Positions 39,899 to 44,608 of a DNA stretch of 52,134 nucleotides are shown in pieces. The stretch lies in NCBI GenBank assembly GCA_033762295.1, contig JANRLW010000106.1, forward strand, positions 1 through 52,134. The letters run 5' to 3'. The DNA comes from Capsulimonadales bacterium. GTDB taxonomy: Bacteria; Armatimonadota; Armatimonadia; Armatimonadales; Armatimonadaceae. Numbering within the stretch: position 1 is the stretch's first letter; the number at the start of each line of letters is the position of its first letter. The translations under genes were made by a program, and so were the position numbers. Below the pieces are notes generated by a model. That model ran no database searches and had not been told where the DNA came from. It saw only the letters and a program-made list of their open reading frames with translations.

Positions 39899-40810
39899 AT
39901 GAGAACCGTGGTTACGGGCGCGACAGGCTTTATCGGTAAGGGGCTGGTCGCCCGGTTGCGGGAACGAGGTCATTCGGTGGCGACGGTGTCACGCAGCGCG
40001 GAAAAGGCGCGGTCGATTTTCGGATCGGACGTGCGTTGTCTGGCCTGGGGAGATACGGCCGCCTTACGGATCGAAGTCGCGGAAGCGGATGCGGTCTGCC
40101 ATCTGGCGGGGGCGTCCGTCGCCGGGGAACGCTGGACGCCGGCCTACAAGCGGGAGATCCGCCAGTCGCGGACCGAAAGCACGCGCCAACTGGTCGAAGC
40201 CGGTCCGCGCGTCCTGGTTTCGGCGTCCGCGGTCGGCTATTACGGCGGCTGTGGCGACGACCTGCTGACCGAGGAGTCCGGCGCGGGCGAGGATTTTCTC
40301 GCGGATGTCTGCGTCCGATGGGAGGCCGCGGCGCGTCAGGCGGAAAGCGGAGGCGGTCGGGTCGCGCTCGTGCGGATCGGGCAGGTACTCGGAAAGGGCG
40401 GGGGGACGCTCGACGCGATTTTGAACCCGCCGATTGCGCCGGTTTCCCCGTTCCGTCTGGGACTGGGCGGTATGTTCGGCAGCGGTCGGCAGTGGATGCC
40501 CTGGGTCCATCTGTCGGACGTCCTCCGTCTGTTCGTCTGGTGCGTCGAGACCGAGTCGGCCCGTGGTCCGTATAACGCCGTCAGTCCGAACCCGGTCACC
40601 AATCGGGAGTTCACCGAGACCCTGGGGCGCGTCCTGCGGCGGCCGACGGCGATTCCGGTGCCGGCGATCGCTCTGCGGGCGCTCCTCGGCGAATTCGCCG
40701 AATATGTCCTGTATTCGCAGAGAGTCGTTCCGCGCCGAACGACGGAGCAGGGATTCCGGTTCCGGTTTCCCCGGTTGGAGGACACTCTGCGCGATCTTCT
40801 CGAGAACTGA
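39899..40810 (+). CDS. TIGR01777 family NAD-dependent epimerase/oxidoreductase
   Basis: TGATGFIG, SASAVGYYG, GSGRQWMPWVH, PVTNREF. Confidence 0.92.
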   Translation: MRTVVTGATGFIGKGLVARLRERGHSVATVSRSAEKARSIFGSDVRCLAWGDTAALRIEVAEADAVCHLAGASVAGERWTPAYKREIRQSRTESTRQLVEAGPRVLVSASAVGYYGGCGDDLLTEESGAGEDFLADVCVRWEAAARQAESGGGRVALVRIGQVLGKGGGTLDAILNPPIAPVSPFRLGLGGMFGSGRQWMPWVHLSDVLRLFVWCVETESARGPYNAVSPNPVTNREFTETLGRVLRRPTAIPVPAIALRALLGEFAEYVLYSQRVVPRRTTEQGFRFRFPRLEDTLRDLLEN

Positions 40811-40851: not shown

Positions 40852-40906
40852 CTTAATCCTCTCTTAATACGGGCTTAATACTGGCTTAACGTCCGGCGGT
40901 TATTAT
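40852..40906 (+). promoter_or_regulatory. Four 11-bp-periodic CTTAA(T/C) boxes plus -10 TATTAT (OmpR/PhoB-type)
   Basis: CTTAA at 40852, 40863, 40874 and 40885; TATTAT at 40901. Confidence 0.7.
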
Positions 40907-41027
40907 AAGGACGCAACCAGATTCGTTTCCACCCGAGCCTTGGCGAAGATCCGATTTGGTCGCACTCCTTACTGAACCCTTACCTCCTGCCCGCGACAAA
41001 CGGACGTCGCGGGCGAATTTTCTTTTC
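40907..41027 (+). ncRNA. Candidate small regulatory RNA
   Basis: Own promoter, 5' stem-loop, single-stranded ACCTCCT, terminator, no credible ORF. Confidence 0.5.
40989..41027 (+). terminator. Intrinsic terminator
   Basis: GCCCGCGAC-8nt-GTCGCGGGC followed by GAATTTTCTTTTC. Confidence 0.75.
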
Positions 41028-41065
41028 GGACCCTTTCCGGTCGGGCCATCGGGTACCCTGTGTTC

Positions 41066-42616
41066 ATGCGGGTAATCGTGGTCGGGGCGGGAGTGGGCGG
41101 CTTGGTCGCCGGTCTGCGTCTGGCGCATGCCGGGGCGCAGGTGACGATTCTGGAACAGGGAGAACGAGCGGGCGGGAAGTTGAACGTCTGGAAGCCGGAC
41201 GTGCCCGGCGTCGGGACGTTCCGGTTCGATACCGGACCCCATGTACTGACCATGCCCTGGGCGATCCGGGAACTGTTCGACGATCTCGGCGAACCGATGG
41301 AGGAGTATCTGACCCTCGAACGGACGGACCCGATCTGCCGATACCATTTTCCCGGCGATGACCCGTTCGATGCGCCGGCCCGACCCGAAGACGCCCTGCG
41401 GGCGATCGCCACCCGGTTCCCCGGCGATGAATCCGGCTTTCGGGAACTGCTGCGCTACGCCCGGCGCGTCCACGATGTCACGGTGGAACCGTTTCTGCGT
41501 CAGGATTTCGGCGCGGCGGTCCGCGGCATTCCGACCGCGGCGCAGTGGCGGCAACTGGCCGAGTTTCTGGGCCTGCGTCCCTGGCGCACACTGCACGCAC
41601 TGTCCGCCCGCCACCTCTCCGATCCGAAACTCCGGCAGATTTTCGATCTCTACGCGTTCTACAACGGCTCCTCTCCGTATCGCGCCTCGGCGATATTTTC
41701 CATCATCGCCTGGGTGCAGTGGGGCGACGGGACGTACTACCTGCGGGGCGGACTGCGAACCTACGCGGACGCGTTGCTGCGTCTGGCCGAAAAGCGCGGG
41801 GTGGAGATACGGACGGGGACGACGGTCGACGCGATCCGGATCGAGTCCGGCGGCGCGACCGGAGTCACGGTCGCGGGGACCGACCTGGCCGCCGATGCGG
41901 TGGTCTGCAATGTCGATCCGTTGACGGCCTACGCCCGACTGATCGGACCGGCGCATCGTCCGGCCGCCTTCACACCGGAAAGAATGGAGTCCGTCCCACC
42001 CTCCACCTCGGCTTTCGTTCTGTTGCTCGGGGTGCGCGGGACGCCGGCGGGCGACTTCCCGCACCTGTCCCACTACAACTCCTTTCTGCCGCCGAACCTC
42101 GACGACGAATTACAGGCGATCTTCGAACGGGGCGTTCCCGCCGACGACCCCGTGATCGGGGTGACCTGCCAGAGCGTGACCGATCCGACCGCCGCGCCGC
42201 CGGGCCATACCAATCTCTTTGTCATGACGTCGCCGCCCGCGATCGGAAGCCGGTTCGAGTGGAACGAGCAAACCGAAGCCGGGTACCGGGATCGGGTGCT
42301 GGCGCTTCTGGAGACGCGCGGGCGAATGCCGGGTTTGCGGGAGCGGATCGTCTGCGAACAGCGGTGGACACCGAGGACGTTCGCCGATCGGTACGGCGCG
42401 TGGCGCGGGAGCCTTTACGGAGCCTCGTCCAACGGGATCAAATCGGGATTTTTTCGCCCGCCGAACCGGGCGAGCGGCGTCCGGGGACTCTATTTTGTCG
42501 GGGGAGGCACCCATCCGGGCGGTGGCCTGCCCCTGGTGACGTTGAGCGGGAAGATTGTGGCCGAGGCGCTGAGAGCGGATTACGCGGGCAAAAAATATGC
42601 CCGGTTTTCCCAATGA
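41066..42616 (+). CDS. Phytoene desaturase family (CrtI/CrtD-like) FAD oxidoreductase
   Basis: VVGAGVGGL, FRFDTGP, GLYFVGGGTHPGGGLPLVTLSG. Confidence 0.92.
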   Translation: MRVIVVGAGVGGLVAGLRLAHAGAQVTILEQGERAGGKLNVWKPDVPGVGTFRFDTGPHVLTMPWAIRELFDDLGEPMEEYLTLERTDPICRYHFPGDDPFDAPARPEDALRAIATRFPGDESGFRELLRYARRVHDVTVEPFLRQDFGAAVRGIPTAAQWRQLAEFLGLRPWRTLHALSARHLSDPKLRQIFDLYAFYNGSSPYRASAIFSIIAWVQWGDGTYYLRGGLRTYADALLRLAEKRGVEIRTGTTVDAIRIESGGATGVTVAGTDLAADAVVCNVDPLTAYARLIGPAHRPAAFTPERMESVPPSTSAFVLLLGVRGTPAGDFPHLSHYNSFLPPNLDDELQAIFERGVPADDPVIGVTCQSVTDPTAAPPGHTNLFVMTSPPAIGSRFEWNEQTEAGYRDRVLALLETRGRMPGLRERIVCEQRWTPRTFADRYGAWRGSLYGASSNGIKSGFFRPPNRASGVRGLYFVGGGTHPGGGLPLVTLSGKIVAEALRADYAGKKYARFSQ

Positions 42617-42841: not shown

Positions 42842-42914
42842 GACCTGAAAGGCGGGTTTGGCAACTGACTTTTACGGGATTGGAAGGGCCGGATCGACCC
42901 CGGCACGAGGGTGG

Positions 42915-43403
42915 ATGCTTTACTGGACGGAAGGACTGAAGGACGGGGTGGTCCGGCAGGCCGAGGCGGGCTATCCGGAGGAGATCTGCGGCGTTCTGGT
43001 CGGACGATGGTCCGGCGAGGAAAAGATCGTCTCACGCCTCGTTCCGATCGAAAACCGCTGGCAGGAAAGCGGCGAAGCGGAGTTCTCCGGGGTCGGCGAC
43101 GATTTCGGCGGAGCCTCTCGTCACCATCGCTTCAAAATTTCGCCCGAGGATTATTACCGCGTCGATATCGATGCCCGGACGGCCGGGGAGGCGATCCTGG
43201 GGTTCTATCATTCGCATCCCGACCATCCGGCGCGTCCGAGCGACTATGATCTCCGTCTCGCCCGGGAGATTTTCCCCGGATTTTCCTATATGATTGTTTC
43301 CGTACAACGCGGCAAGGCGACCGACGTCACGTCGTGGGTGCTTCGTGACGATTATGCGGATTTCGATCCGGAACCGCTGCGGTTCGCGCCGCTCGAACTG
43401 TGA
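42915..43403 (+). CDS. M67/JAB-domain metallopeptidase (Mec-like)
   Basis: YPEEICG; FYHSHPDHPARPSDYD JAMM motif. Confidence 0.92.
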   Translation: MLYWTEGLKDGVVRQAEAGYPEEICGVLVGRWSGEEKIVSRLVPIENRWQESGEAEFSGVGDDFGGASRHHRFKISPEDYYRVDIDARTAGEAILGFYHSHPDHPARPSDYDLRLAREIFPGFSYMIVSVQRGKATDVTSWVLRDDYADFDPEPLRFAPLEL

Positions 43404-43414
43404 GGAGAGTGCCT

Positions 43415-44608
43415 GTGTCCAGTATTTCGGTTCCGTCCGCCGTCGATCCGACGGAAGTATCCCTGTCTCCGCAGGAGTTGCTGCGGTATTCGCGGCACCT
43501 GATTCTGCCCGAAGTCGGCCCGGAAGGGCAGAAGCGATTGAAGGCGGCGTCCGTTCTCTGTATCGGTACCGGCGGACTGGGGTCGCCCTTGACGATGTAC
43601 CTGACGGCGGCGGGGGTCGGTCGCGTCGGTCTGGTCGATTTCGACGTCGTGGACTTCACCAACCTCCAGCGGCAGATCGTCCACGGAACGAAGGATGTCG
43701 GGAAACCCAAGATTCAGTCGGCGAGGGAGACGCTTTCCGATATCAACCCGGAGACGGTCATCGAGACGCATGAAACAATGCTTTCCTCGGCGAATGCCCT
43801 CGAACTCTTCGCCGGATACGATCTGATCATCGACGGCACCGACAACTTCCCGACCCGTTACCTGGTCAATGACGCCTGCGTTCTGCTCGGAAAGCCGAAT
43901 GTCTACGGATCCATCTTCCGATTTGAGGGGCAGGCGACCGTGTTCTGGGCCAAGGAAGGCCCCTGTTATCGGTGCCTCTATCCGGAACCGCCGCCCCCCG
44001 GTCTCGTGCCGTCCTGCGCCGAGGGCGGCGTTCTCGGCGTCCTTCCCGGAATCGTGGGATGCATCCAGGCGAACGAGGCGATAAAACTGATTCTGGGAGT
44101 CGGCGAGCCGCTGATCGGTCGTCTGCTCCTGTTCGACGCGCTCGGTATGCGGTTCCGCGAGTTGAAACTGCGCAAGGACCCCGCCTGCCCGATCTGCGGT
44201 TCGAACCCGACCGTGACGGCGTTGATCGATTATGAGGAGTTTTGCGGAGTCGGTCGCGGCAGCGAGGCTCCGCCGGAGGCTGCCCCTACCATGCGAGAGA
44301 TAACCCCGATCGAATTGAAAGCGAAACTCGACCGCGGTGACGATTTCCTGTTGATCGATGTACGCGAACCGTACGAATGGGAAATCGCCCGGATTCCCGG
44401 CGCGACACTGATTCCGCTCGGAACGATCGCCGACCGTGCGGGCGAACTGGACCCGAATGCCGAGATTGTGTTGCAGTGCCGGAGCGGTAAGCGATCCGCT
44501 ACCGCGCTGGAAACCCTGCAGCAGAAGGGGTTCAAAAACCTCCTGAACCTGAAGGGTGGAATCCTCGCCTGGGCGGACGACGTCGACCCGACGGTTCAGA
44601 AGTACTGA
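43415..44608 (+). CDS. moeB: MoeB/MoeZ-type adenylyltransferase-sulfurtransferase (ThiF plus rhodanese)
   Basis: RYSRHLIL, GTGGLGSP, NLQRQ, CYRC, CPIC, rhodanese CRSGKRS. Confidence 0.95.
   Translation: MSSISVPSAVDPTEVSLSPQELLRYSRHLILPEVGPEGQKRLKAASVLCIGTGGLGSPLTMYLTAAGVGRVGLVDFDVVDFTNLQRQIVHGTKDVGKPKIQSARETLSDINPETVIETHETMLSSANALELFAGYDLIIDGTDNFPTRYLVNDACVLLGKPNVYGSIFRFEGQATVFWAKEGPCYRCLYPEPPPPGLVPSCAEGGVLGVLPGIVGCIQANEAIKLILGVGEPLIGRLLLFDALGMRFRELKLRKDPACPICGSNPTVTALIDYEEFCGVGRGSEAPPEAAPTMREITPIELKAKLDRGDDFLLIDVREPYEWEIARIPGATLIPLGTIADRAGELDPNAEIVLQCRSGKRSATALETLQQKGFKNLLNLKGGILAWADDVDPTVQKY

Follow-up and report, generated by a model that had tools for sequence, protein, structure and literature searches.

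A conserved small RNA family with a predicted Pho-box promoter and a candidate anti-Shine-Dalgarno seed in the Armatimonadota

Introduction

Few small RNAs (sRNAs) of the phosphate regulon have been described so far. EsrL of enterohaemorrhagic E. coli is reportedly an sRNA linked to phosphate status that is induced by phosphate and repressed by PhoB. In the published account of PhoS, the known regulators of bacterial phosphorus metabolism are said to be nearly all proteins (PMC11522486). PhoS itself, from Bacillus subtilis and B. velezensis, is presented there as a phosphate-starvation sRNA with four Pho boxes and a conserved C-rich seed whose pairing lies near a ribosome-binding site; it is given as 66 nt long, originates from the phoPR 3' UTR, carries its seed at the 5' end and activates phoP (PMC11522486). 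PsiR1 of Synechocystis PCC 6803 is likewise reported downstream of SphR-type Pho boxes, as an RNA of about 500 nt that is co-transcribed with sll1552, contains two small ORFs and lacks conservation in a sister strain (PMC6596454). The cyanobacterial SphR box is described as CTTAACCT, with 8 bp followed by a 3-bp linker (PMC1906773). In Firmicutes, RsaE / RoxS are described as using single-stranded C-rich motifs that pair with the Shine-Dalgarno (SD) sequence and block initiation (PMC6158497).

Here we describe an sRNA family from the phylum Armatimonadota that can be set beside these systems. Like PhoS, it combines four Pho-type boxes with a conserved C-rich motif, and it is set apart from PhoS by description: the new RNA is intergenic, lies far from phoB, has its seed within the molecule, 3' of a long hairpin, and is a predicted repressor. 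It shares with PsiR1 the CTTAA design with its 11-bp period and, in contrast to PsiR1, is about 114 nt long, apparently non-coding and conserved over seven genera. If its seed acts as we propose, it would resemble RsaE / RoxS, and the copy in the source genome also has two anti-SD stretches; the phylum and the regulators are different, however, and the new RNA has no Rfam match. Unlike what is said of EsrL, its boxes occupy the position of an activator, and it has no Rfam match to that RNA.

Results

The element belongs to a conserved, terminator-ended RNA family

All coordinates refer to the window, that is, the whole 52,134-nt stretch of DNA analysed, which comes from a source genome of 5.16 Mb (G000); the features are collected in Table 1. 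We searched for homologues with BLAST, exact-core scans, a promoter-plus-motif pattern and three covariance models. This identified 12 copies, carried by 10 of the 32 genomes of family f1 (G000, G001, G002, G008, G010, G011, G012, G013, G014 with two copies, and G021; 7 of its 12 genera) and by the metagenome locus L040. Model R2 recovered the copies in G021, G014 (copy G014a), G011 and G001 without having been trained on them, with E values from 2.5e-15 to 1.8e-5. Across the copies, the promoter geometry, the fold and the terminator are preserved, and the neighbouring genes differ. At least two TTAA boxes precede 11 of the 12 copies, the one in G001 having a single box.

Table 1. Features of the sRNA locus, its neighbours and the candidate target
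Feature	Position	Strand	Basis or remark
TIGR01777 (YfcH) oxidoreductase gene, upstream neighbour	39899..40810	+	not conserved beside the sRNA
Four Pho-box-like half sites (CTTAA core, 11-bp period), replacing a -35 element	40852..40889	+	array scan
-10 hexamer TATTAT, 11 nt past the last box	40901..40906	+	equal geometry in most homologues
Predicted sRNA, about 114 nt	40913..41026	+	predicted start
5' hairpin, variable in sequence, ending at the seed start	40913..40963	+	fold in homologues
Conserved two-part seed, CUCCUU (40965-40970) and CUGAACC (40972-40978), single-stranded	40965..40978	+	homologue alignment
Second anti-SD stretch CCCUUACCUCCU, lineage-restricted, pyrimidine tract elsewhere	40977..40988	+	3/12 copies
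Intrinsic terminator, 10-bp stem and U tail	40988..41026	+	prediction and compensatory changes
Separate crtI -10 TACCCT, not part of the sRNA	41054..41059	+	conserved in orthologues
crtI-family phytoene desaturase gene	41066..42616	+	TIGR02734, 382 bits (cut-off 238); downstream neighbour in the source lineage only
Candidate target, RpoD-family alternative sigma factor	G000:C131, start 8021

No copy was found in searches of G003, G004, G007 and G018, genomes that are 80-90% complete. Inspection of the R1 matches placed the f1 seed in none of the 39 genomes of the sister family f2, and the R3 model, run over 151 genomes of the phylum, returned only different seeds. A promoter-plus-TGAACC pattern, run over 401 genomes of the phylum, matched in 15 genomes outside f1, and the 15 places listed were mRNA leaders, chance matches or another type of RNA. 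Some exact-core matches were set aside: one of three genome matches was due to chance, lying antisense to a ribosome-binding site from a different phylum, and 18 of 20 metagenome matches were without the element, the other two being the new locus L040 and a repeat of G010. Two loci have features of their own. The longer second copy in G014 (L219:1383-1595, minus strand) has about 100 additional 5' bases and a variant seed and is a probable paralogue. In G012, a long palindromic repeat with weak miRNA-family matches lies directly 3' of the sRNA (L098:1317-1442) and is probably a small inverted-repeat element.

In the first six copies aligned, the 5' stem starts with a G that lies six bases downstream of the -10; in G000 this G is at 40913, which we take as the predicted +1. 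The RNA predicted from this start (40913-41026) has a fold of three parts, a hairpin at the 5' end, 24 nt of open linker and the terminator (z -3.16; 1 of 200 shuffles equally stable), reproducing the stem, unpaired stretch and intrinsic terminator in an RNA of some 115 nt that a sequence-only reading of this DNA had proposed. Covariation among the homologues bears out the terminator: over 11 sequences, four of seven pairs had compensatory changes and 97% of cells were paired, compared with 33-48% in slid registers. Its stem spans 40988-41015, and its U tail is imperfect, with five U among the first 8 nt. The 5' hairpin was folded by all 11 main copies (z -0.8 to -3.1), with p <0.05 in 6 of the 11; taken alone, it is non-significant in the remaining five.

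Rfam 15 matched no known family, with no match over the whole window, best E values of 4 and 5.6 in the region itself and none at the gathering score for the homologue loci. Our literature search, which covered mostly sources other than subscription journals and ncRNA-screen supplements, returned no description of sRNAs or of a Pho regulon in Armatimonadota. We conclude that the sRNA family is real, conserved and apparently undescribed.

A two-part seed complementary to the Shine-Dalgarno sequence

Between the terminator and the variable hairpin, conservation is highest in the 5'-proximal half of the linker, which holds a seed of the form CUCCUU(N1-8)CUGAACC. CUGAACC is present in 10 of the 12 copies and CUCCUU in 9, this anti-SD half being altered in G002, G014a and G001. 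The seed has an unpaired probability of 0.96-0.98 in the G000 copy. CUGAACC is predicted to be unpaired at 0.66 or above in 8 of the 12 copies and is hidden in the predicted ensembles of L040 (0.16 unpaired), G002 (0.32) and G021 (0.32). CUCCUU is the exact complement of AAGGAG, the SD sequence used by many G000 genes. The sequence-only reading had also proposed an anti-SD seed and had named CCUUACCUCC for this role. While the CCCTTACCTCCT that it listed is indeed found at 40977, the named motif occurs in 3 of the 12 copies and did not hold up as the conserved seed. The anti-SD mechanism survives with a moved seed, since CUCCUU is itself anti-SD, and pairing of this half with ribosome-binding sites is plausible.

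A U-tailed terminator together with a short open seed marks the Hfq-type pairing sRNAs, whose usual shape is one short conserved single-stranded motif before the terminator. Hfq is encoded in the genome (94.8 bits).

Candidate targets

Gene calls come from a simple script, and part of the starts it gave are incorrect. A complement of both seed motifs before an ATG was found at 43 places in five carriers. Two of these, one in G002 and one in G013, mark a single gene, an RpoD-family sigma factor that scores below all equivalog cut-offs and is present in 31 of the 32 family genomes; G002 and G013 belong to one genus, and the lead was first selected from them. GGTTCAG and AAGGAG lie near the start of this gene in 3 of 10 carriers (G013, G002 and G008, the last with both motifs 8 nt apart) and in none of the 16 non-carriers examined; the sigma starts were chosen by hand, and 4 of 30 loci that yielded no SD-bearing start were left out. 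The G000 leader offers 12 contiguous pairs with the seed across the SD, the most among 4185 predicted start regions, and falls in the top 1-1.4% of start regions by energy. Among 880 G000-G010 orthologue pairs, the sigma gene ranks 5 by energy with the conserved core and 34 with the full linker, and it is one of the two pairs with at least nine contiguous pairs in both genomes. This two-genome scan spans 1.86 Mb, about 41% of G010, so G010 targets outside the scanned part are unranked.

By carrier, sigma pairing is strong in four, middling in three and weak in three; against an SD-matched background it is unremarkable in G012 (p 0.44), G001 (p 0.56) and G021 (p 0.15). Pooled p values are 0.016-0.028 for energy and 0.001-0.002 for contiguity, over related and non-independent genomes, with a background from G000 only and hand-chosen starts. 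These results point, tentatively, to the alternative sigma factor as a possible target of the sRNA, and several lineage-specific targets are likely. Other candidates were rejected. The best G000 site belongs to upp and is absent in G002, G008, G010 and G013. A nucleoside:H+ symporter (rank 1 of 880) has its gene in two of five other carriers with no clear site, an ABC-2 permease (rank 2 of 880) was not found with the query in any of the five other carriers, and strong pairing of purA and glpK is limited to G000.

There is no start region in which the full two-part match is found across all carriers, and CUGAACC is somewhat better conserved than the anti-SD half across a spacer that varies from 1 to 8 nt. 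This is what might be expected if the Pho-induced RNA bound a protein or another RNA as a decoy or sponge, without blocking the ribosome-binding sites of mRNAs. Protein-sponge RNAs, however, usually carry a repeated motif, and the single short single-stranded motif 5' of the terminator fits pairing sRNAs, as does the exact complementarity of CUCCUU to the SD of many genes. We regard a decoy or sponge as unlikely and favor an RNA that pairs with ribosome-binding sites.

Pho-box-like arrays mark a probable phosphorus-acquisition regulon

The CTTAA cores ahead of the sRNA start at 40852, 40863, 40874 and 40885, and this is one of only two exact four-box CTTAA arrays in the genome. Genome-wide, 27 CTTAA pairs have a spacing of 11, compared with three or fewer at each other spacing up to 40 (multiples of 11 excluded). 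The four periodic boxes and the TATTAT -10 on which the sequence-only reading was built are thus in place and beyond chance. Tandem boxes standing in for a -35 element are a sign of PhoB-type activation. A sigma-70-like site on the minus strand (40931-40902) is directed away from the sRNA.

Using the pattern (C/T)TTAA-6-(C/T)TTAA, we identified 66 arrays in the genome. TAnnnT lies 11 nt from the last box in 12 of them, the distance used by the sRNA promoter, and at 22-24 nt in 31 counts. We scanned 11 genes below boxes, chosen by eye among the 66 arrays, and eight encode phosphorus-acquisition proteins: a phosphonate-binding protein, a PstS-family protein, three phosphoesterases, a phytase-like esterase, a tyrosine-type phosphatase and a purple acid phosphatase. 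The gene for the PhnD-like phosphonate-binding protein lies downstream of a five-box array. PstS passes TIGR02136; its gene and phoU share a strand, with pstS upstream and phoU closing the operon. That boxes of this kind precede pstS, phnD and six phosphatase or phosphoesterase genes gives the Pho reading good support. Pho control of the sRNA promoter, which the sequence-only reading had supposed, is likely as predicted from this regulon and the matching box-to--10 distance.

A real sRNA whose boxes are read by a different OmpR-family regulator, or in response to a signal other than phosphate, would agree with two observations. None of the four full-length OmpR-type regulators in the genome passes the PhoB cut-off, the best match scoring 237 bits with TIGR02154 (curated cut-off 296; a histidine kinase ORF adjoins, as judged by eye), and 30 of the 66 arrays lie upstream of DUF1559 prepilin-like genes, which have no known function in phosphate. 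We nevertheless consider another regulator or signal quite improbable, given the arrays upstream of the PhnD-like gene, the pstS-phoU operon and the six phosphatase-type genes, and given that core and period of the sRNA boxes equal those described for the SphR box (PMC1906773). Genes for DUF1559 or prepilin-type N-terminal proteins below arrays (for example window 3951, plus strand, C107:4008 and C107:5075) suggest that there may be a large phosphate-controlled set of uncharacterised proteins.

The RNA is independent of the downstream crtI gene

The 12 copies occupy at least four gene contexts: a weak RuvX/YqgF-like gene (below the Pfam cut-off) precedes six and a DUF1559 gene two, and in seven the next gene is convergent (six by ORF lists, G014a by eye). 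A crtI-family gene is downstream of two copies, in G000 and L040, and in G000 its ATG is 40 nt past the U tail of the sRNA. The crtI orthologue is present in 12 of 31 relatives and lies on another contig than the sRNA in eight carriers. In all 11 orthologues with a visible start, TAnnnT stands 6-7 nt before the ATG with no sRNA upstream, and the leaderless crtI promoter appears real because it is conserved across orthologues. The separate crtI -10 in the sequence-only reading is therefore confirmed, and with it the view that this RNA need not be the crtI UTR. As judged from these sequence comparisons, the sRNA is a unit with its own promoter and terminator, independent of the flanking genes.

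That reading had kept open an attenuator, that is, a crtI leader or riboswitch in which starvation opens the promoter and terminator read-through sets carotenoid gene expression. The analysis lends this no support: 10 of the 12 copies have no crtI downstream, seven of the copies run into a convergent gene, and there is neither a conserved antiterminator nor an Rfam riboswitch match. Since crtI follows two copies only and all 11 orthologues with a visible start have a leaderless promoter of their own, an attenuator is very unlikely. What its closeness to crtI in G000 and L040 leaves room for is read-through as a side effect in the source lineage, which is possible because the U tail is interrupted and TACCCT is the poorest crtI -10 among the 12 seen.

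The crtI leaderless promoters that we examined are at 41054-41068 of the window and at L052-L063, and leaderless-looking genes number about 351 of the 4226 script-called genes of G000. Further along the window (42858-44608, plus strand), a JAB/Mov34-domain gene lies directly 5' of a gene judged by eye to be MoeB/rhodanese-like; the two form a prokaryotic ubiquitin-like sulfur-transfer pair.

A small-protein mRNA or type I antitoxin is hardly credible: some copies have short frames, and phosphate-induced PsiR1 of Synechocystis may, by its published description, encode peptides (PMC6596454), but the predicted RNA contains no ATG or GTG in the G000 and G010 copies, the short frames of other copies are not common to them, and no common small gene lies antisense or adjacent over the differing contexts. 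Judged by its sequence, the element is non-coding.

Other Pho-box RNAs in the phylum

A second family of Pho-box sRNAs, about 80 nt long, occurs in the sister family f2, with four boxes, the 11-nt distance and a -10, followed by a short hairpin, the seed CCAUUGCUCAU(U)CCCC and a terminator (L009:1554-1631 in G033, L010, L332, L334, L346, L379 and L382). This seed is found in 27 of the 39 f2 genomes and in none of the 32 f1 genomes, and boxes and terminator were present in all five copies inspected. No Rfam match at the gathering score was obtained for L009, L010 and L382. Against the sigma orthologue of the same genome, the f2 sRNA did not pair in any of four genomes (-3.5 to -14.8 kcal/mol), and the sigma link therefore gains nothing from it.

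Short terminator-ended Pho-box RNAs were also seen in family f8 (L380:1501-1653, minus strand, in G203; L384:1501-1644, plus strand, in G076; L105; L386); CGCUCACUCUCCGAGCGACGAUCACCCUU is common to three of them and one is of a different type. The f1, f2 and f8 RNAs have a common build and differ in their seeds. Genus g6 has a structured element, conserved and 140 nt long, in which a long 5' stem is combined with GAACCUUCUUUGGG and a terminator (L070:1473-1615, L071, L075, L076 and L078; L074 and L081), with a box-like TTAA/CCTAA 22 nt before TATAAT in five of the seven. It is possibly a distant relative of the f1 sRNA. The g6 element with GAACCUUCUUU was left uncounted, as its R2 score comes from the terminator only and it has no R3 score.

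Discussion

Taken together, these results make it probable that the element is a stand-alone, trans-acting sRNA of the Pho regulon that blocks ribosome-binding sites. Under phosphate limitation, a phosphorylated PhoB/SphR-type regulator would bind the tandem CTTAA boxes and activate the -35-less promoter, a step that we infer from the regulon and the promoter geometry. The predicted RNA, of 100-130 nt, would end at its own terminator, a structure backed by conservation. The 5' hairpin would protect the RNA end and present the single-stranded seed, which, probably with Hfq on the U tail, would pair over (GGUUCAG)-AAGGAG ribosome-binding sites and stop translation. The leading candidate for such repression would be the conserved RpoD-family alternative sigma factor.

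With at least two further Pho-box sRNA types, carrying other seeds, in related families, this design seems to recur in the phylum. It is conceivable, though doubtful, that Armatimonadota have a conserved RNA arm of the Pho response, in which each family has a PhoB-activated sRNA of the same build (three to five boxes, hairpin, seed and terminator) with a family-specific seed, and in which the f1 RNA shuts off translation of a group-2-like sigma factor. The analysis provides a defined sRNA family whose start, seed and terminator are predicted, as well as a Pho box for Armatimonadota. The sRNA and the sigma factor leader form a specific pair that is testable in E. coli without culturing the host. 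If this reading is true, phosphate starvation would rewire sigma factor use through an sRNA.
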